DNA of 64,000 bases, from IMG/VR virus record IMGVR_UViG_3300033074_002207; one strand, 5' to 3'. Below the pieces are notes generated by a model, which saw only the letters and a list, made by a program, of their open reading frames with translations, was not told the DNA's origin and searched no databases. The translations under genes and the position numbers were made by a program. The stretch's first letter is position 1, and the number at the start of each line of letters is the position of its first letter. Origin of the DNA: a virus (taxonomy: Duplodnaviria > Heunggongvirae > Uroviricota > Caudoviricetes). Below are positions 17,942 through 59,390 of this stretch, piece after piece.

Positions 17942-18018
17942 GCTGCATTGGTCAAAATGGTAAAGGCAACAGGCTCAGACCCTGAAATCTGAGAGTTCGA
18001 ATCTCTCATGCAGCACCA
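17942..18018 (+). tRNA. type-I tRNA with Gln-like D arm and anticodon loop ctCAGac (CAG, a Leu anticodon); non-canonical
   Basis: acceptor gctgcat/atgcagc, D arm gtcaaaatggtaaaggc, 4-bp anticodon stem cagg/cctg, short variable loop. Confidence 0.4.
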
Positions 18019-18020
18019 AT

Positions 18021-18097
18021 GCTCCTCTAGGCCAACTGGTAGAGTCACATAGCTCAAACCTATGCAAGTCTCGGTTCGAATCCGGGGAGGAGCACCA
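18021..18097 (+). tRNA. type-I tRNA with anticodon CAA (a Leu anticodon) in a short-variable-arm scaffold
   Basis: acceptor gctcctc/gaggagc, anticodon stem catag/ctatg with loop ctCAAac. Confidence 0.5.
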
Positions 18098-18100
18098 AAT

Positions 18101-18177
18101 GTCGCGTTAGCCAAATTGGTAAAGGCAACAGGTCGAGAACCTGAAATCTGAGAGTTCGAGTCTCTCACGCGACACCA
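18101..18177 (+). tRNA. type-I tRNA, near-duplicate of 17942 with anticodon loop tcGAGaa (GAG; C at position 33) - non-canonical
   Basis: acceptor gtcgcgt/acgcgac; differs from 17942 mainly in the acceptor and the anticodon loop. Confidence 0.35.
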
Positions 18178-18343: not shown

Positions 18344-18435
18344 AGCGGGAAGATGACTGTGGCGAAATTGGTAGCCGCTGGCCGTGACGAGCGGTCTGCT
18401 GAGATAAGAACAGCGTGCAGGTTCGAGTCCTGTCG
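18344..18435 (+). tRNA. type-II tRNA-like with non-canonical anticodon loop (tgacgag) and an A1:C72 mismatch; identity unresolved
   Basis: Leu-type D arm, long variable arm, T arm gcagg-ttcgagt-cctgt, CCA encoded. Confidence 0.35.
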
Positions 18436-18446
18436 GTCACACCATT

Positions 18447-21383: not shown

Positions 21384-21800
21384 ATGAAATACACAACATC
21401 ATTCATCGTATTTCCAAAACACTGTAATCATTTGCGCGAAGTCATTTTTGGCGGACAGTTTATGGCTGAAATGGATTTAGCCGCAGCCCATTGTATTCGA
21501 CGCCTTTTGTTTAAGGCAAATGAAGGAGTAGAGCATGCCGTTACTCATAAAGCCAATTTTGATTTCCAAAAGCCAGCCTATCTTGGCGACTTAATTGAAC
21601 TAGAGGCTGAGGTTAAGTCTCTGGGAGAAAAATCTATTGTTGTTCAGGTTGTGGCTTGGCGCAACCGCAAGAATGTTCGCGCTCGCATGGCTATTGGCGA
21701 TTTTGTTTTTGTGGCTATCGGTGCTGTTGACGACCTTACAGGACACCCGGAATTTTTACCCTACAAAAATCACGGTTTGACAGACGAAGATATTGAATAA
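21384..21800 (+). CDS. hot-dog fold acyl-CoA thioesterase-like protein
   Basis: VFPKHCNHLREVIFGGQFMAEMDLAAAH resembles the YciA/4HBT hot-dog signature. Confidence 0.45.
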   Translation: MKYTTSFIVFPKHCNHLREVIFGGQFMAEMDLAAAHCIRRLLFKANEGVEHAVTHKANFDFQKPAYLGDLIELEAEVKSLGEKSIVVQVVAWRNRKNVRARMAIGDFVFVAIGAVDDLTGHPEFLPYKNHGLTDEDIE

Positions 21801-23157
21801 GATGAGTGACCAGCCCAGTTATTTGATAGACATTCCACCAGCCACCATCAGTGGTGAGTTGCACATGGGGCATATGTTCAGCTATGCCCAAATGGATTTT
21901 GTTGCCCGATATCATCAAATGATGGGTAAAGAATTGATTTACCCATTTTGTTACGATAACAATGGTTTGCCTACCGAAAAACTCGCACACAAAAACCAAG
22001 CATATGGGAAAGATGAAATTTTATCTTTTTCTCAGGATTGGTCGCAAGGATATTTGCAAACCTTCGAATCATTAGGGCTTGCACTATCTCCACAATCTTA
22101 TAATACTTTTGACTCCAATGCCGTTGCTCTGGCACAAATGTCATTTCAAGATTTGAAAGACAAGGGGCTTGTTTACAAAGCTCATACTGAATTTTTCTGG
22201 TGTCCAGTAACTCAGGTTTCGGTTTCGCAATCAGAGTTGACTGATGACATGCGTTATGAACGCTCTGGCGAGAAGGTTGAAATACGCAGTGGCGAAGGGT
22301 ATTTTGTTCGTATGATTGACCATTTGCCCGAGATTCGTCAAGCCATTGAAGAAATTCAGTGGCACCCGGAGCATTTCAAGCATAGACTGCTTCGATGGTT
22401 GGATGATTTGAAATTTGATTGGTCGATAAGCCGCGAAAGAAACTTTGGAATTCCTATTCCTGGAGAAGAGGGATTGGTTTTTGACACATGGTTTACAAGC
22501 AGCCTGTCGCCTCAAATGGCTTATTGTGCAGGTGGAAACACGCCCACATTAGACGTTCCGACTTTTGATGCTAGATTTCAGGCTCATGATATTATCAGAA
22601 CATGGGCTTTGTTTACGATTGTCAAATCGCTATATCACAACAACCGAATTCCTTGGAAGCATATTGTTATTAGCGGGCATGCAGTAGATAAACAAGGCAA
22701 AAAGCTGTCGAAAAGCTCACCAAATTACAAGCCTGCAACTTATTATTTTGAGCAATGGGGCGCTGACCCACTTCGTTTTTGGGCTGCTCAAAATCCAGTA
22801 GGCACAGACACCAAGCTCGATGAATCTGTAATGCTGCACGGGAAGAAGCTAATCAATAAAATTAAAAATGCTCGTAGATTCCTTGGTATGCAGTCAGATG
22901 CTGAAACTTGCGATGAGTGGATGAGTCAATGGATGTCCGTCAAAGCCGAGTTCTGCAACATGATGGAAAGCTTCAACTGGAGTGATGCGCTCAAGTTATT
23001 AACCAAATTTTTCTGGCATACTTATTGTGATATCTTTATTGAAGCCAACAAGCAGCAACCTGCAACTTTAACTTTGTCTTTGATAATGGATGATATGCTT
23101 GATTGCTATTCAATCTTTATGCCTGAAGTTAAACCCATACAATGTGAGATAAAATGA
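21793..23157 (+). CDS. catalytic-core-only class Ia aminoacyl-tRNA synthetase homologue (ValRS/IleRS/LeuRS family); lacks CP1 editing and anticodon-binding domains
   Basis: PPATISGELHMGHMF (HIGH), ARYHQMMGK, FDTWFTSS, GKKLSKS (KMSKS); 454 aa. Confidence 0.7.
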   Translation: MNKMSDQPSYLIDIPPATISGELHMGHMFSYAQMDFVARYHQMMGKELIYPFCYDNNGLPTEKLAHKNQAYGKDEILSFSQDWSQGYLQTFESLGLALSPQSYNTFDSNAVALAQMSFQDLKDKGLVYKAHTEFFWCPVTQVSVSQSELTDDMRYERSGEKVEIRSGEGYFVRMIDHLPEIRQAIEEIQWHPEHFKHRLLRWLDDLKFDWSISRERNFGIPIPGEEGLVFDTWFTSSLSPQMAYCAGGNTPTLDVPTFDARFQAHDIIRTWALFTIVKSLYHNNRIPWKHIVISGHAVDKQGKKLSKSSPNYKPATYYFEQWGADPLRFWAAQNPVGTDTKLDESVMLHGKKLINKIKNARRFLGMQSDAETCDEWMSQWMSVKAEFCNMMESFNWSDALKLLTKFFWHTYCDIFIEANKQQPATLTLSLIMDDMLDCYSIFMPEVKPIQCEIK

Positions 23158-23620: not shown

Positions 23621-23705
23621 GGGGCGGTGGCGTAATCGGTAGCCGCAGCAGTCTCAAAAACTGCCGTCGCAAGACGTGAGGGTTCGAGTCCCTCCTGCCC
23701 CACCA
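23621..23705 (+). tRNA. tRNA-Leu(CAA), type II
   Basis: acceptor ggggcgg/ctgcccc, anticodon stem gcagt/actgc with loop ctCAAaa, CCA encoded. Confidence 0.6.
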
Positions 23706-23721
23706 ATAAATGGAGACAAAA

Positions 23722-24409
23722 ATGAAAAAGAGCATAATTGAAATTCGGGCTGCTGAAGGCGGCGCAGAATCAAAGTTGTTAGTTAAAGACCAGTTTGCTA
23801 TTTACGCAAAGGCATGCACGCTGGAGTGTCTTTGACATCACCATCCTTGAAGAAAGAGATGGGTTTATTTCATTTTTGATAGAGGGTAAAAACACTTCTA
23901 TTTTTAACCGTGAATCGGGAAGCCATGTTTGGCAAAGAATATCCCCTACTGAAAAACGCGGTCGAACTCACACGTCCTTAATCACTGTTGCAGTATTGCC
24001 TGTTCCAGAAGAAAATGACATTGTTTTAAACGATAATGATTTAGAGATATCTAATTATTGTTCTTCTGGTCATGGTGGGCAGCACATTCAAAAGAATCAG
24101 ACGGCTGTGAGGATTGTTCACAAACCGACTGGCATCACAGTTACTTGTCAAAATGAACGCTCTCAGTTTCAGAACAAAAAATTTGCTCTAGATTCATTGA
24201 GAGCCAAGTTGAAAGATGTAAACGACCAAAAACAACAAAAAAATGTCACCGCTATGCGAAAAGACCAAATTGGCATCGGAGAGCGCGGAGGAAAAATTCG
24301 AACAATTCGAGTAAAAGACAATATGGTAATTTGCAATGTGACGAGCAATACCAAATCTTTCAAGGAATATCAAAAAGGAAAGATACGATTCGATAATGGC
24401 AAAGAATAA
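23722..24409 (+). CDS. prfB: peptide chain release factor 2 (compact form) with programmed +1 ribosomal frameshift (frame 0: 23722-23832, then +1 from 23834)
   Basis: ORF0 MKKSIIEIRAAEGGAESKLLVKDQFAIYAKACTLECL ends at CTT TGA C; an internal SD-like GGAG lies 3 nt upstream of CTT; the downstream frame carries the GGQ motif (SSGHGGQHIQKNQTAVRIVHKPTGI). Confidence 0.8.
23830..23836 (+). other. programmed +1 frameshift site CUU UGA C
   Basis: GGAGTGT CTT TGA C parallels E. coli prfB AGGGGGTAT CTT TGA C. Confidence 0.75.
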
Positions 24410-24977
24410 AAAAGTTGCAATATTAGTCGGCAAAACTGGGCGAGGAACCAATATGATGAACCTGGTCCAGTTTTGTAAATCACACCAAATTGATGCTGAA
24501 ATCAGTCTGATTGTTTCGCCAGCCCAAAATGCTGCTACAGAATGGGCGTCAGGGAAAAACATCCCGGTTGTTGTTATAGACAAGCTAAATAATCCGAAAT
24601 ATACGACACAGCTTCTTGATGCTTTGCATGATGTCGATATCATTTGTTTAGCTGGATATCTGTATTTACTACCAAGCGAAATTATCGAGCACTACCCCAA
24701 TCGTATCCTTAATATCCACCCATCTTTGCTTCCTAAGTTCGGCGGCAAGGGAATGTATGGACTCAATGTTCATAAAGCAGTTATTGAAGCTGGCGAGACA
24801 GAAAGTGGCTGTACAGTTCATTTGGTTACGCCAGAATATGACCAGGGAAAAATTGTGTTACAAGTCAAATGTAAGGTTAAAGAAGATGACACTCCTGAAA
24901 CCCTTGCATCCAGAATTTTGCTATTGGAACATGCGGCGTATCCTATTGCGCTAGAGTGGCTTTGTCTACAGTGTTAA
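24396..24977 (+). CDS. purN: phosphoribosylglycinamide formyltransferase (GAR transformylase)
   Basis: NIHPSLLPKFGGKGMYG...ESGCTVHLVTPEYDQGKIVLQ. Confidence 0.75.
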   Translation: MAKNKKVAILVGKTGRGTNMMNLVQFCKSHQIDAEISLIVSPAQNAATEWASGKNIPVVVIDKLNNPKYTTQLLDALHDVDIICLAGYLYLLPSEIIEHYPNRILNIHPSLLPKFGGKGMYGLNVHKAVIEAGETESGCTVHLVTPEYDQGKIVLQVKCKVKEDDTPETLASRILLLEHAAYPIALEWLCLQC

Positions 24978-49458: not shown

Positions 49459-50631
49459 ATGCAAAAGATTAATGGAATCCCGGTTTTCGGACATCCTGTC
49501 GATGAACAGGCTTTAGCGCAGATTCAGAACTGCATGCCAGAGGCATGCGGCGCGGCTCTTATGGGCGACCATCACCTTGGTTATTCTGTGCCCATTGGCG
49601 GCGTGGTCGTTTACGATGGAATGATTTCTCCAAGCGGCGTGGGATATGACATCGCATGTGGAAACAAGGCTGTCCGACTGGACATGGACGGAGACGAAGC
49701 TCGAAAGAACATCAAGACCATCATGGATGATGTTTGGAAGAGCATCGAATTTGGAATTGGACGCAAGAACCAAGAGGTAGTAGACCACGAGTTGTTCGAC
49801 AGTGACGCTTGGCGTTTCGGTGTGGCGTCAGATTTCAAGGACAAGGCGCGTGAACAGCTTGGAACTGTCGGAAGCGGAAACCACTATGTGGACATTTTCG
49901 TTGACGAAAAGAACCGGGTTTGGGTTGGCGTCCACTTTGGAAGCCGTGGACTTGGACATACTTTAGCAAGCCACTTCATTAAGTTGGGTGGTGGAAGCGA
50001 CGGTATGCATGTAAAGCCCGTGGTATTCGATGTCAATTCCAACCTTGGCGCAGATTATATCGAGTGCATGAATCTTGCTGGCGAATACGCTTATGCAGGA
50101 CGTGACTGGGTGTGTTCGCGTGTGGCGCAAATTCTTGGGGCACCGATTGTTGAAGAAATTCACAATCACCACAACTTTGCGTGGAAGGAAACTCACAACG
50201 GTCGAGACTATTGGGTTGTCCGCAAGGGCGCAACCCCGGCATTTCCTGGTCAAAAGGGATTTGTTGGCGGTTCAATGGGTGACCGTTCTGTGATTCTGGA
50301 AGGCTTGGAGTCAGATGCGTCTCGTGAAGCGTTTTATTCCACTGTGCATGGTGCTGGTCGTATTATGTCTCGTACAGAGGCGACTGGACTGAGCAAGTGG
50401 GGTAAGCGACGTGTGCGCGAACCTGGCGTTAAGCAAGAAGACATGGACGCTTGGGTGAAGAAGGTTGGTGTAGAACTTCGTGGCGCGGGTGTTGACGAAT
50501 CCCCGCAGGTGTACAAGCGCATCAATGATGTTCTTGAACATCACGAAGGAACCATCAAGATTCTACATACGCTTACGCCAATCGGCGTGGCTATGGCTGG
50601 AAGCGACACCTTCGACCCGTACAAGGATTAG
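49459..50631 (+). CDS. rtcB: RtcB-family RNA ligase (3'-phosphate/5'-OH)
   Basis: GVGYDIACGN, GSGNHYVD, HNHHNF, VHGAGR. Confidence 0.8.
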   Translation: MQKINGIPVFGHPVDEQALAQIQNCMPEACGAALMGDHHLGYSVPIGGVVVYDGMISPSGVGYDIACGNKAVRLDMDGDEARKNIKTIMDDVWKSIEFGIGRKNQEVVDHELFDSDAWRFGVASDFKDKAREQLGTVGSGNHYVDIFVDEKNRVWVGVHFGSRGLGHTLASHFIKLGGGSDGMHVKPVVFDVNSNLGADYIECMNLAGEYAYAGRDWVCSRVAQILGAPIVEEIHNHHNFAWKETHNGRDYWVVRKGATPAFPGQKGFVGGSMGDRSVILEGLESDASREAFYSTVHGAGRIMSRTEATGLSKWGKRRVREPGVKQEDMDAWVKKVGVELRGAGVDESPQVYKRINDVLEHHEGTIKILHTLTPIGVAMAGSDTFDPYKD

Positions 50632-51721: not shown

Positions 51722-52783
51722 ATGGGACGGCTTTTAACTAGAACAGAATTTAGGGAAGGAGTGCTGGAGCGCGACGGACATCGTTGTGTGATTTGTGGTA
51801 TCTCTGGTGTCAAGTTAGACGCCCATCATATTGTTGAACGAAGACTTTGGACAGCCGAACACGAGTTTGGCGGATATTTTCTCGACAATGGAGCATCCGT
51901 TTGCGAAACCCATCATATCATGGCTGAACAGACTGTTTTGTCATGTGATGATGTGCGTCGTGCTGCTGGAATCACCAAGGTGATTCTTCCAGAGCAATAT
52001 TACGATGACGTTGTGATTGACAAGTGGGGTAACTACATTCAATCAAACGGCACCAGGCTTCGCGGGGAGTTGTTTTATGATGAATCTGTTCAAAAAATTC
52101 TAAAAGAAGGTGGTGTTTTATCCGATTTTGTGGATTATGTTAAATATCCACGGACTTATCATTTAGATTTTAGCAATCCACCTAAAGATGATAAGGTTCT
52201 CAAAAATTACGACTTTATTCGTGACAAAGAAGTTGTAGTCACCGAAAAAATGGACGGCGAAAACACAACGATGTATCGTGATTATATCCATGCGCGGTCG
52301 CTTGAATATCTAACAGGAGAAGACCGTGGCTGGGTAAAAGCGTTGCATGCTAGAATTTGCTACGATATACCAGAAGGATGGCGTATTTGCGGTGAAAATC
52401 TGTATGCTAAGCACTCTATCACATATGTTGATTTAGAATCTTATTTCAACGTGTTTTCCATTTGGAATGAAAAGAATGAATGTTTGTCGTGGGATGACAC
52501 CGTTGAATGGTGCAACTTGCTGGGATTAAATCATGTTCCAGTCTTGGCTCGCGGACTTTTTGATAGAGAAGAGCTTCTTAGAATTACGCAAATGTTAGAT
52601 TTAACAGTTCAAGAGGGCTTTGTTGTGCGCCCAACTCAACAGTTTTCTTATTCAGATTTCAAATATGCAGTTATGAAATTTGTTAGACCCAACCATGTCA
52701 CCACCAGTAATCACTGGCGACATCAGCGTATCGTGCCAAATGGTTTGAAGAGAACAGACGCCTTGGAAAACATTGTGGTATAA
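51722..52783 (+). CDS. fusion protein: N-terminal HNH-like zinc/His domain + Rnl-type RNA ligase
   Basis: DGHRCVICG...DAHHIVER (HNH-like), then KYPRTYHLD and motif I EKMDGEN. Confidence 0.6.
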   Translation: MGRLLTRTEFREGVLERDGHRCVICGISGVKLDAHHIVERRLWTAEHEFGGYFLDNGASVCETHHIMAEQTVLSCDDVRRAAGITKVILPEQYYDDVVIDKWGNYIQSNGTRLRGELFYDESVQKILKEGGVLSDFVDYVKYPRTYHLDFSNPPKDDKVLKNYDFIRDKEVVVTEKMDGENTTMYRDYIHARSLEYLTGEDRGWVKALHARICYDIPEGWRICGENLYAKHSITYVDLESYFNVFSIWNEKNECLSWDDTVEWCNLLGLNHVPVLARGLFDREELLRITQMLDLTVQEGFVVRPTQQFSYSDFKYAVMKFVRPNHVTTSNHWRHQRIVPNGLKRTDALENIVV

Positions 52784-55275: not shown

Positions 55276-55988
55276 TGAGACAATACTCTTCTTCTGAAAA
55301 AGAACTTAGACAGTCATGGGCGAAAGACATCTTTCACCCTGACTGTGAAGAGTATCGCGTACATTATGCGCTCACAGATTATCATGCCAATCAAAGCTTT
55401 GATTGGTTAATGTCTCAATATCAGGAAACTCACAGGTATTACCACAACCTTAACCACCTGTTTCACCTGTTTAACACTCCTTTTGAAAGAACCGACTATG
55501 GCTCTTCGCTGGTGAGAACACTATTCTTCTTCTTTCACGATTGTATTTACAACATCCCATCCTCTACCAACGAAGAGGATAGCGCAACTGAGTGTGAGGC
55601 TCGGTTGAGTTCTATGGGGTTTGTTAAATCCGAATCTGTGTTTAACAGACATAAAGGTGGGGAAACCAGAGATTTTGTATGTGAGACGATTCTGTTAAGC
55701 AAACACACACAACCCACAAACAACACCTTTCAACAAGAACTCTTAGATGCAGACCTTTGTATTCTGGGCGGAAATCCTCAAGAATACAAAGAGTATGTTA
55801 CTAATATAAGAACCGAATACGGAGTCGTCCCACAAAACGTATGGAATGAAAAGCGCGGCGAATTTTTAGAGTTTATGCTGACAAAGCCACGAATATTTCA
55901 ATCACCGCTTTTTTACGGACTCTACGAAGAACAAGCAAGACAAAACATGTCTGAAGAATTAAGCAAATACACACGAGAACAAATATGA
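55275..55988 (+). CDS. hypothetical protein, possible HD-type phosphohydrolase (H...HD)
   Basis: YHNLNHLFHLF...FFFFHDCIYN; start at the Met overlapping the ruvB stop. Confidence 0.3.
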   Translation: MRQYSSSEKELRQSWAKDIFHPDCEEYRVHYALTDYHANQSFDWLMSQYQETHRYYHNLNHLFHLFNTPFERTDYGSSLVRTLFFFFHDCIYNIPSSTNEEDSATECEARLSSMGFVKSESVFNRHKGGETRDFVCETILLSKHTQPTNNTFQQELLDADLCILGGNPQEYKEYVTNIRTEYGVVPQNVWNEKRGEFLEFMLTKPRIFQSPLFYGLYEEQARQNMSEELSKYTREQI

Positions 55989-57199
55989 AACAACTGACAC
56001 TCAGCACTCTTTTAGGCGATGCCTCTCCAACGAAGCGAGGCGAAATGTCCATCGTCTTTTCCACAGAAGTTTTTTGGGCACCCAAGAACGAAAATGTGAG
56101 CGCCGCAAAGGGCAACAAGAAGTTTTGGCAAGGTCACGTAGCCACTGATGGTATTGATTGGTACACCCTCACCACTTTCTGGCAAGAAACCTCTGATGGC
56201 TCAGAATCTAAGCGACAAACCAGCGCACCGACCAAAATGACGCAGAAGAATGTCGGAAAGGCTAATGAAACGAGCTTGGAACAACAGGCATATTCTGAGC
56301 TAAACTCAATGATTAACAAACAGCGAGACAAAAAGTATCGTCTAGAAGGCGAAACTGTCGCCGCTGATTCCGCTCTTAGCTTGCCACTTCCAATGTTGGC
56401 TCACAAGTGGAAGGAAAAGAAGCACAAGATTCAGTTCCCGGTTTGGGCTCAACCCAAGTTTGATGGCGTCAGGATGCTCCAAGACGGCGAAAGAATGTGG
56501 TCACGAAAGGGTAAGCTGATGATTCCTGAGTGTATTGAGCACCTGCTTATTGATACACAAGGCTATAACATGGATGGAGAGCTTATTCTTCCGCCGCCCT
56601 ACGCCTTTCAAGACACAATGCAAGCAGTGAAGAAATACTATCCGCATCTGTCACCGAATTTGTTGCATCGTGTGTATGACATTATGATTCCTGATATCAA
56701 GTTTTCTGAAAGGTTGGCTTTTCTCAAGGATGTCGTGCAAAAATCAGGCGCGTCGAATATCGTTTTATCTGAAACCGTTCAACTTCACAGTGAACAAGAA
56801 CTAGAACAATATCATGAAGCCAAGGTCGCTGAGGGTTGGGAAGGCGTTATCGTTCGTGCAGATATCGGCGGATATGAAATCAATAAAAGAGCCAACCAGT
56901 TGCTCAAATATAAGTCTTTTGACGACGATGAGTTTGAAGTTGTCGGTGTCGTCACCGGAGAGGGTAAGTTTGAAGGCTTGGGAATTTTGGAGTGTATTAC
57001 CAAGCATGGTGTGACATTCCGCGCCACACCAAAGGGCACGGTGGAGTATCGAAGACGACTATACGAACACCCAGAGGAAGTTATTGGACAAATGTGGAAA
57101 ATCCAATACTTCGGGTGGACTACAAACCCAGACCCGACACAGGTCAAGCCAAGGCATGCTATTGCCGTTGGTGAGCGGGACTCTGATATCGAGGGATAA
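55985..57199 (+). CDS. ATP-dependent DNA ligase (phage/T7-like)
   Basis: motif I AQPKFDGVR, central adenylation region, C-terminal OB-like region. Confidence 0.7.
   Translation: MKQLTLSTLLGDASPTKRGEMSIVFSTEVFWAPKNENVSAAKGNKKFWQGHVATDGIDWYTLTTFWQETSDGSESKRQTSAPTKMTQKNVGKANETSLEQQAYSELNSMINKQRDKKYRLEGETVAADSALSLPLPMLAHKWKEKKHKIQFPVWAQPKFDGVRMLQDGERMWSRKGKLMIPECIEHLLIDTQGYNMDGELILPPPYAFQDTMQAVKKYYPHLSPNLLHRVYDIMIPDIKFSERLAFLKDVVQKSGASNIVLSETVQLHSEQELEQYHEAKVAEGWEGVIVRADIGGYEINKRANQLLKYKSFDDDEFEVVGVVTGEGKFEGLGILECITKHGVTFRATPKGTVEYRRRLYEHPEEVIGQMWKIQYFGWTTNPDPTQVKPRHAIAVGERDSDIEG

Positions 57200-57731: not shown

Positions 57732-59390
<1,659 letters not shown>

Follow-up and report, generated by a model that had tools for sequence, protein, structure and literature searches.

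Can a phage make a release factor from a gene that a stop codon closes after only 37 codons, and what would then set the amount of factor made? This question is raised by positions 23722-24409 (plus strand) of a 64,000-nt stretch of viral DNA (IMG/VR record IMGVR_UViG_3300033074_002207; Caudoviricetes), which at its full length we call the window. Joining two reading frames conceptually by a +1 shift gives a single product of 228 amino acids (aa), the approximate size given in an earlier description made from the letters alone (the sequence-only reading). That reading had called the gene a release factor 2 (RF2) gene retaining the autoregulatory frameshift of prfB. Our analysis points to a different factor: we put the probability at about 0.8 that 23722-24409 encodes one 228-aa, frameshift-gated factor derived from release factor 1 (RF1), with a prfB-like cassette that arose by convergence and an output inversely coupled to UGA-termination capacity. 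From the comparisons below we infer that the shift takes place in vivo, that it responds to RF2, and which codons the factor reads.

Two reading frames meet at a prfB-style cassette

The first open reading frame (ORF0; 23722..23835, plus strand) has 37 sense codons, where the sequence-only reading had counted 36, followed by TGA at 23833-23835; it reads MKKSIIEIRAAEGGAESKLLVKDQFAIYAKACTLECL. A Shine-Dalgarno (SD) sequence for its initiation codon, GGAG at 23713..23716 (plus strand), lies 5 nt (ACAAA) ahead of the ATG at 23722. ORF0 does end, as described earlier, on GGAG TGT CTT TGA C (local order ...CTG GAG TGT CTT TGA C). On the plus strand, this cassette comprises an internal SD-like GGAG (23823..23826), presumed to stimulate frameshifting and located 3 nt upstream of the CUU shift codon just as had been claimed, and the shift site CUU UGA C (23830..23836; CTT 23830-32, TGA 23833-35, C 23836). 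The second frame, ORF1 (23834..24409, plus strand, +1 frame), has the predicted 191 codons, ends with TAA at 24407-24409, and encodes the rest of domain 2/4 and domain 3. It contains RISPTEKRGRTHTS. The codon-recognition tripeptide S-P-T (23942..23950, plus strand) occupies the slot of RF1 P-x-T and RF2 S-P-F in a HMMER alignment to the RF1 proteins of T. maritima and T. thermophilus, and the GGQ catalytic motif (24074..24082, plus strand) is an invariant column of our alignment (A1). A profile search also bore out the proposed release factor homology of the +1 frame, with a Pfam RF-1 domain match of 1.9e-29 in ORF1. A GGQ-containing class-I release factor would be made from this locus only through a prfB-style +1 recoding cassette, as the sequence-only reading had it.

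How distinctive is this cassette within the window? The string GGAGNNNCTTTGAC occurred once, against 0.00 occurrences expected from 100 shuffles. The bare heptamer CTTTGAC was not rare, with 15 occurrences seen and 11.2 expected; because the heptamer is near its chance frequency, the significance of the cassette comes from its context and its conservation. The junction peptide predicted from a +1 shift at this site is ACTLECLDITILEER. Folding of the RNA downstream of the shift site gave no significant signal (z = -1.74), and an Rfam scan returned nothing other than tRNA.

ORF0 corresponds to the first strand and helix alpha5 of release factor domain 2, GG-x-E tip included (Pfam PCRF profile positions 100-128). 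The PCRF profile aligned across the junction, over residues 2-89 of the fused protein, with 52.9 bits, while the separate halves scored only 18.8 and 31.1 bits. This alignment through the junction agrees with the earlier proposal that ORF0 is part of the release factor, not an independent gene.

The fused protein resembles RF1 without domain 1

Which release factor would the joined frames encode? With NCBIfam models, the fused protein scored 202.7 bits for prfA, 144.9 for prfB, 103.9 for PrfH, and 34.6 for ArfB, all under the equivalog cut-offs (TIGR00019 [prfA], 423.25; TIGR00020 [prfB], 370; TIGR03072 [PrfH], 166.65; ArfB, 100). The RF1 model was ahead of the RF2 model by 58 bits for the window protein and by about 50-85 bits in nine diverse relatives. 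Coverage of the prfA profile was confined to positions 113-319 of 361, with domain 1 and the last C-terminal helix absent; the upstream DNA, where domain 1 would be encoded, is occupied by a tRNA gene. Among PDB sequences, HMMER gave the RF1 proteins of T. maritima and T. thermophilus as the best matches. The AlphaFold model, for which alignment A1 served as input, had a pLDDT of 89.8 overall, a pTM of 0.79, and a pLDDT of about 97 over residues 30-45, which contain the junction; in this model the ORF0 part forms a strand (residues 2-12) and a helix (residues 15-34) with pLDDT >95. Foldseek matched the model to domains 2-4 of ribosome-bound RF1 (TM 0.88, rmsd 2.2 Å) and to PrfH (TM 0.64).

The decoding loop, W-Q-R-I-S-P-T-E-K-R-G-R-T-H-T-S, is RF1-like in its Gln and Thr-Glu residues except that Ser stands for the first Pro. 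The Gln ahead of S-P-T is kept in the same relative position as the Gln of the RVQRV segment of RF1, and the GG-x-E tip is retained. Across the family, the tripeptide is SPT, GPT, or SGT in the window's clade and PPT in the rest; neither PPT nor SPT was found among 35 bacterial RF1 genes sampled. The protein therefore has the fold of domains 2-4 and the GGQ motif, a loop that is S-P-T instead of P-x-T, and no full-length match to the RF1 equivalog, which includes domain 1. Release activity does not require domain 1 (Baranov et al. 2006). On the basis of these profile and model comparisons, we assign the fused 228-aa product to the class-I peptide release factors, as an RF1 descendant without domain 1 whose family is found mainly in huge phages. 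The label of release factor 2 does not hold, since the RF1 models and the best PDB sequence and fold matches all favor RF1. The description "stripped-down RF2" captured the N-terminal truncation (domain 1 is wholly absent) and erred on the class, and of the two motifs for which a check had been suggested, SPF and GGQ, only GGQ is present.

The loss of domain 1 could also indicate a factor of the PrfH or ArfB kind that rescues damaged or stalled ribosomes, possibly together with the phage RtcB, with the frameshift gating rescue. PrfH too has no domain 1, RtcB and an RNA ligase are encoded in the same window (49459-50631 and 51722-52783), and one relative, in phage LR745208.1, has a shortened recognition loop. 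We consider a rescue factor very improbable, because the PrfH score (103.9 bits) is under its cut-off of 166.65 and about 100 bits below that of RF1, the TM of 0.64 compares with 0.88 for RF1, and the protein keeps the Gln, the GG-x-E tip, and a loop of the P-x-T type; the RtcB gene lies at a distance of 25 kb and does not belong to the PrfH-linked type (TIGR03073, 97.6 bits versus a cut-off of 271.8). An ArfB/ICT1-type identity was rejected on its score (34.6 bits versus a cut-off of 100) and on the presence of a complete decoding domain 2/4.

The shifted arrangement is conserved among relatives

Is the divided frame peculiar to the window? From alignment-based searches, we examined 80 IMG/VR viral loci (of roughly 370 hits) and 80 metagenome loci (of >600 hits). 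A motif script compared the frame of the N-terminal motif IEIRAAEGG with that of the decoding loop, and de-duplication then yielded 56 non-redundant shifted genes, the window's among them, with pairwise identities of 39-99% (median, 52%). Wherever motif and loop lay in different frames, the offset was +1. In all 56 genes, frame 0 stops exactly 32 codons past IEIRAAEGG, at CTT plus a stop codon, and the four bases C-T-T-T are invariant. The stop is TGA in 44, TAG in 11, and TAA in 1, followed by C in 45, G in 10, and T in 1. The window and 55 other non-redundant loci share the features by which we define the family: a start codon 2-5 codons before IEIRAAEGG (accompanied in relatives by a purine run resembling a ribosome-binding site [RBS]), CTT-stop 32 codons after it, a +1 frame with x-P-T-E-K-R-G-R and GGQ, a length of ~220-230 aa, and no domain 1.

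Constraint at the site extends beyond the shift codon. An SD-like run at -13..-6 was present in 45 of the 56 shifted genes (80%), compared to 2 of 13 unshifted short genes, 5 of 35 bacterial RF1 genes, and 0 of 28 genes with in-frame stops. The third-codon positions -10, -7, -4, and -1 before the stop carried 1.33, 0.97, 0.86, and 2.0 bits, against a mean of 0.43 bits at third positions in the rest of ORF0. Codon periodicity flips at the site, following frame 0 upstream (1.22/1.45/0.43 bits) and frame +1 downstream (0.65/1.06/0.27 bits). The DNA of seven close relatives revealed an ORF0 of 36 or 37 codons ending in (Y)TGGAG NNT CTT TGA, then GAC, while neighboring codons vary synonymously; the eight members of the window's clade all have (Y)TGGAG even though the sequence around it changes synonymously, and all eight use UGA in the cassette.

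Could the pattern reflect a gene that is dead or was mis-sequenced, with one base inserted? One additional T would be enough to generate it, and one relative (L136) has a second frame change. Against this, the site is identical in 56 non-redundant genes from independent samples and assemblers, curated complete genomes included, CTT-T never varies, synonymous sites show constraint, and coding constraint acts on both halves. We regard a pseudogene or assembly error as scarcely credible.

The 15 closest proteins in a database of 5.8 billion proteins (P0001-P0015; 53-97% identity) were all called as the downstream ORF only. Their N-termini are unrelated until they reach WSVFD (with two variants RSVFD and WRVFD, and one WSLFD), and WSVFD corresponds to TGG AGT GTC TTT GAC, that is, the cassette read in the +1 frame. 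These calls are exactly what would be expected of two separate products, a 37-aa peptide and a shorter factor initiated inside the +1 frame, e.g., at TTG 23795. Such an arrangement is highly improbable: in relatives, the +1 frame stays open only 18-135 nt upstream of the site and has neither a start nor an RBS that is conserved, the called N-termini are unrelated junk, and ORF0 is helix alpha5 of the decoding domain (domain 2), predicted to fold continuously with ORF1. The sequence comparisons argue that the frameshift is programmed and not an error, and for practical purposes they exclude the sequencing-error, pseudogene, and two-gene explanations.

The shifted gene occurs on huge-phage contigs of up to 456 kb. 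The curated 485-kb phage LR745208.1 (L169) carries the cassette CGGAGGGGT CTT TGA C (gene at about L169:1500-2150); its recognition loop is shortened to RVQRTSNGRIHSS, without x-P-T-E, a change that may have altered or abolished its codon specificity. The GTDB genome set contains the cassette at nine loci, among them the complete chromosome of Minicystis rosea DSM 24000 (CP016211.1, region about 5,209,473-5,216,136 [L394]; gene L394:3001-3670), where it reads CGG AGT GGG CTT TGA C and predicts the junction peptide LCGRSGLDLDLVEALPGL. The surroundings in this cultured myxobacterium are not obviously those of a prophage, with an ECF-type sigma factor and a GDSL lipase nearby. The other eight GTDB contigs are mostly metagenome-assembled genomes (MAGs) of Myxococcota or "Deltaproteobacteria." The GenBank record for M. 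rosea, APR79142.1, is the 188-aa downstream ORF only, labeled "Peptide chain release factor 1," and the same holds for every public protein record that we traced (P0001-P0015 and APR79142.1). Fused products of 220-230 aa were absent from a collection of 15 billion proteins.

Searches by other routes added little. Scans of IMG/VR with 14-17-nt cassette strings returned mostly chance matches, with release factor genes in only 12 of 215 stretches. A nucleotide search of INPHARED phages gave tRNA matches only, and in protein mode it gave uncultured huge phages and probable bacterial contaminants, with no annotated example. In L136 (JRHI01000077.1), CTT TGA C is followed by a +1 continuation, yet the gene returns to frame 0 about 20 codons on, through a second recoding event or an indel or assembly error.

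The cassette was probably not inherited from prfB

Is this the prfB cassette retained, as the sequence-only reading had proposed? In Escherichia coli prfB, the stop is codon 26, in domain 1 (2016 recoding review). The window junction (residues 37/38) aligns to about position 150 of the prfB and prfA profiles, at the end of helix alpha5 in domain 2, which places the cassette about 125 residues deeper in the protein. A position not homologous to that of prfB, in a protein without domain 1, points to an independent origin, and the idea of retention fails on the same ground.

The codons that make up the cassette specify ..R-R-G-(F/L)-(D/E).., a conserved segment of domain 2. In unshifted relatives, this place encodes ..Q-R-R-G-F-E.., e.g., as CGG CGT GGT TTT GAG. 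R-R-G can also be spelled CGG AGG GGT, and insertion of one base turns GGT TTT GAG into GGT CTT TGA G. The local protein sequence predisposes this spot to a prfB-type cassette, because synonymous changes and one inserted base suffice. Neighbor-joining places the shifted genes in a single large clade, so that the cassette apparently originated once, or a small number of times, and has been kept since. Judging from these alignments, the cassette is best explained as a convergent copy of the prfB device and not as an inherited one.

Early stop codons are a common theme in the family

Do relatives outside the 56 keep an early stop by other means? Nested in the shifted clade are genes with an in-frame stop in the exact slot of the cassette (L003, TAT TAG A; L006, CTA TGA C; L095, CTC TGA A), which suggests that shift and read-through solutions have interconverted. 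A sister clade, of 20-odd genes, has no frameshift; there, UGA (rarely UAG) occurs in frame once or twice, 31-46 codons past IEIRAAEGG (L170 [LR756501.1], L171-L173, L009, L017, L018, L026, L028, L042, L055, L059, L062, L069, L071, L078, L080, L085, L093, L097, L111, and L141); four of these genes have UGA in place of a Trp codon that is conserved in bacterial RF1. In a sample of 97 short genes, a gate was absent in only 13. From this census, it appears that the stop codon, and not the shift as such, is the selected element, with an early stop-codon gate as the common theme.

Reassignment of UGA or UAG across the genome, as a cause of the gate or of the in-frame stops, was rejected, since all three stops are used in flanking ORFs in every class. 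The RF gene of the 735-kb phage LR756501.1 has two in-frame UGAs, and within the 50 kb around it, 19 of 70 ORFs end in UGA and in no case does UGA join two long segments; this looks like gene-specific read-through rather than a code change. The window uses the standard code with all three stops. It had 0 joined segments when both flanks were at least 90 codons, and a looser 80-codon version gave 5 minus-strand TGA joins and 0 TAG joins; this joined-segments test is confounded in high-GC loci, and an ORF-coverage metric was uninformative on the code.

What the gate would sense

What, then, would decide how much factor is made? The mechanism of the prfB cassette has been established experimentally (Prince et al. 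2025; 2016 recoding review), and by analogy with it, bypass should rise when recognition of UGA in the A site is slow. Translation would begin at ATG 23722 and at codon 37 would bring peptidyl-tRNA-Leu onto CUU, with UGA-C, a stop in weak context, in the A site and the internal GGAG placed, at 3 nt upstream, where the anti-SD of 16S rRNA could pair with it. If UGA were recognized fast, a 37-aa dead-end peptide would be released. If recognition were slow, the tRNA would re-pair from CUU to UUU (+1), GAC (Asp) would be read next, and translation would run on through the S-P-T loop and the GGQ domain. The output of phage factor would in this way be inversely coupled to the UGA-termination capacity of the infected cell, set by host RF2 and possibly by the factor itself. 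Overall, the gate probably acts as a sensor of termination capacity. That the element senses UGA termination had already been suggested in the sequence-only reading, and by analogy with prfB we judge it the most reasonable interpretation.

Several observations weigh against a sensor of this kind. UGA is read by RF2, and RF1 does not read it; an RF1-like factor need not, then, autoregulate in the classical manner. Across the family, tripeptide and cassette stop show no covariation, as genes with Ser or Gly first have 9 TGA and 2 TAG, and genes with Pro first have 35 TGA, 9 TAG, and 1 TAA. The SD-like run is missing in 11 of 56 cassettes, and that of the window is only 4 nt long and one base nearer to CUU than the GGAGG consensus of the family. 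A covariation of SPT with UGA and of PPT with UAG, prompted by one gene with PPT and CTT TAG C (L002), was rejected because PPT with UGA is the commonest combination in the 56 genes.

How could an RF1-like factor be coupled to a UGA gate? One possible answer is cross-sensing of host RF2, with indirect feedback through UAA. Such feedback could operate because UAA is read by factors of both the RF1 and the RF2 type, and more ORFs of the window end in UAA (38 of 68) than in any other stop. The other answer is that the factor reads UGA itself. The loop sequences make this plausible in the window's clade, which has Ser or Gly instead of the first Pro, and conceivable for the whole family, given that the middle Pro of P-P-T is RF2-like.

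Were UGA read by the factor, the locus could follow the classical scheme of direct autoregulation, with an abundant factor ending its own ORF0. Ser is first in S-P-T as it is in RF2 S-P-F, the window's clade has swapped a near-universal Pro for Ser or Gly, and all eight of its members use UGA. The middle Pro is RF2-like, and PPT and SPT are absent from the 35 bacterial RF1 genes sampled. According to the tripeptide rule of Ito et al. (2000), Ser in the first slot reportedly confers tolerance of A or G at the second base, which would favor this scheme. However, the rest of the loop is RF1-like (Gln, Thr-Glu), and later work indicates that the tripeptide alone does not set release factor specificity, so a Ser-first loop is insufficient by itself. 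Moreover, most UGA cassettes go with PPT loops, and SPT or SPL also occurs with UAG (L072 and L057), with no covariation. We consider direct autoregulation unlikely, if a serious competitor.

Could the shift instead be constitutive, with no sensing at all, holding a potentially toxic factor at a fixed low yield or merely tolerating a "corrected" indel? Over-expressed release factors are toxic (Prince et al. 2025), which gives such a fixed yield a rationale; in addition, an SD-like stimulator is missing from 11 of 56 cassettes, and any of TGA, TAG, and TAA may serve as the stop. On the other hand, a stop always occupies the A site and is followed by a weak +4 base (C in 45 of the 56 genes, G in 10), and relatives with a different solution have likewise preserved an early stop, in-frame UGA or UAG, and not some other attenuator. 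Because the stop is always kept, also in these alternative solutions, selection is apparently on the stop-codon gate, and bypass of such a gate necessarily depends on the termination rate. A purely constitutive shift is therefore improbable, and we favor a gate that responds to termination.

Genomic context of the release factor gene

What surrounds the gene? The window is phage-like, as the sequence-only reading had it: there are 23 tRNA genes and PHROG matches (RtcB, RNA ligase, DNA ligase, clamp loader, GroEL, and HNH endonucleases), relatives of the gene are on IMG/VR contigs, and no cellular core genes were found in the window. Directly upstream is tRNA-Leu(CAA) (23621..23705, plus strand; ARAGORN; Rfam tRNA, 53.4 bits), with an encoded CCA, ending 16 nt before ATG 23722. 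The adjacency from which co-transcription had been proposed is real and, with no terminator predicted, co-transcription is possible; the adjacency is nonetheless lineage-specific, being found besides the window only in a near-identical contig (L168). Four relatives in the window's clade have a Clp_N-domain gene directly upstream instead (L001:5141-5959, L163:3109-3756, L164:3471-3917, and L166:1904-2638). A promoter scan of the window was uninformative (16 promoter-like matches versus 11.2 expected).

Downstream, a PurN-like formyltransferase gene (24396..24977, plus strand; Pfam Formyl_trans_N, 1e-41; NCBIfam PurN, 144.6 bits, just under the cut-off of 150.1) overlaps the release factor stop by 14 nt, which suggests translational coupling; this gene is also nearby in L001 and L168. 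The order of the neighborhood is thioesterase, an editing-less synthetase like valyl-tRNA synthetase (ValRS), two small ORFs, tRNA-Leu (Clp_N in relatives), release factor, and PurN-like gene, and it is syntenic with L001 and L168 and partly with L163 and L164. The synthetase (21793-23157, plus strand) is a 454-aa class-I aminoacyl-tRNA synthetase closest to ValRS (358 bits versus a cut-off of 738, matched in three stretches); it has no CP1 editing domain and is conserved upstream of the release factor gene in L001 and L168.

Elsewhere, the window carries an RNA-repair and chaperone cluster composed of RtcB ligase, an HNH-fused RNA ligase, an ATP-dependent DNA ligase, and GroEL (49459-50631, 51722-52783, 55985-57199, and 57744-59390). 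A tRNA-Leu array includes, at 17942-18177 and 18353-18444, three 77-nt tRNAs with short variable arms and Leu anticodons (CAG, CAA, and GAG), as well as a 92-nt tRNA with a long variable arm, a Leu-like D-arm, and the Arg anticodon ACG. Body and anticodon are apparently mismatched in this array, and mis-decoding or unusual charging is possible.

Relation to known systems and implications

How does this gene compare with release factor genes already described? With prfB it shares an SD-like run of purines located 3 nt ahead of CUU, a stop codon at the A site, C at +4, a Leu-Asp junction, a short dead-end ORF0, and presumably a bypass inversely related to the termination rate. It differs from prfB in being RF1-derived, in having its site in domain 2 (about profile position 150) and not near codon 26 in domain 1, and in lacking domain 1; in addition, 20% of the family's cassettes have UAG, and the product may not read the codon that serves as sensor. 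UAG was never seen among 8,164 prfB motifs, and no programmed shift was found in prfA in >12,000 bacterial genomes (Prince et al. 2025); nor was an RF1 counterpart of the prfB frameshift known to the 2016 recoding review. Relative to canonical RF1 (prfA), which is the best sequence and fold match for domains 2-4 and has the Gln, the x-P-T-E loop, and GGQ in common with it, the window protein lacks domain 1 and the C-terminal helix, has S-P-T for P-x-T, and requires a frameshift.

RF1 and RF2 genes were already known from phages (Al-Shayeb et al. 2020; Borges et al. 2021 preprint), and those of huge or stop-codon-recoded phages match the window gene both in kind and in the type of genome that carries them. 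The curated huge phages of Al-Shayeb et al. (2020) include members of the short RF1-like family. Term searches of the two studies (Al-Shayeb et al. 2020; Borges et al. 2021) turned up no mention of a frameshift, an in-frame stop, or domain 1 loss in phage release factors. The window is on the standard code, so a role in a code switch is not evident.

The eRF1-type factor of Mimivirus and Megavirus is likewise a viral release factor made by passing internal stops, through a frameshift and read-through that were interpreted as bacterial-like autoregulation (Jeudy et al. 2012); it has the unrelated eRF1/aRF1 fold, belongs to eukaryotic viruses, and uses different recoding signals. PrfH (RF-H), of about 200 aa, also has no domain 1 and retains GGQ. 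In contrast to the window gene, that for PrfH is obligatorily preceded by a partner, rtcB2, and its product differs in the decoding loop; the window protein scores much better as RF1, has an RF1-type loop, and is preceded by a tRNA and small ORFs with no adjacent rtcB. We found no published account of a frameshift in a phage RF1-like gene in the open-access literature, an absence that is not proof.

The short RF1-like, frameshift-gated family is sizeable and previously unrecognized. The chances seem to us evenly balanced for a broader proposal, namely, that it represents an unrecognized class of RF1-type factors without domain 1, in huge phages and some Myxococcota, nearly always gated by an early stop (as a convergent prfB-like +1 frameshift with CUU-UGA or, in one case out of five, CUU-UAG, as an in-frame stop at that slot, or as in-frame UGAs close by) and acting either as a cross-sensor of host RF2 or through a UGA-reading or omnipotent loop, and that it provides the first programmed frameshift in the RF1 lineage. 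The prfB frameshift is textbook autoregulatory recoding that was thought to be confined to RF2; here the device occurs independently in an RF1-type gene, with UAG and UAA variants. More than 50 cassette variants, with and without an SD-like run, with three stops and varied +4 bases, make a natural test set for models of +1 frameshifting, and natural release factors without domain 1 are of interest for genetic-code engineering. There is also an annotation gap, as the public records that we traced hold only the downstream ORF of family members. For the phages themselves, the gate suggests that large phages monitor or rebalance host termination. If the cross-sensor reading is true, a phage would make its own terminator only when RF2-dependent termination in the host falters.

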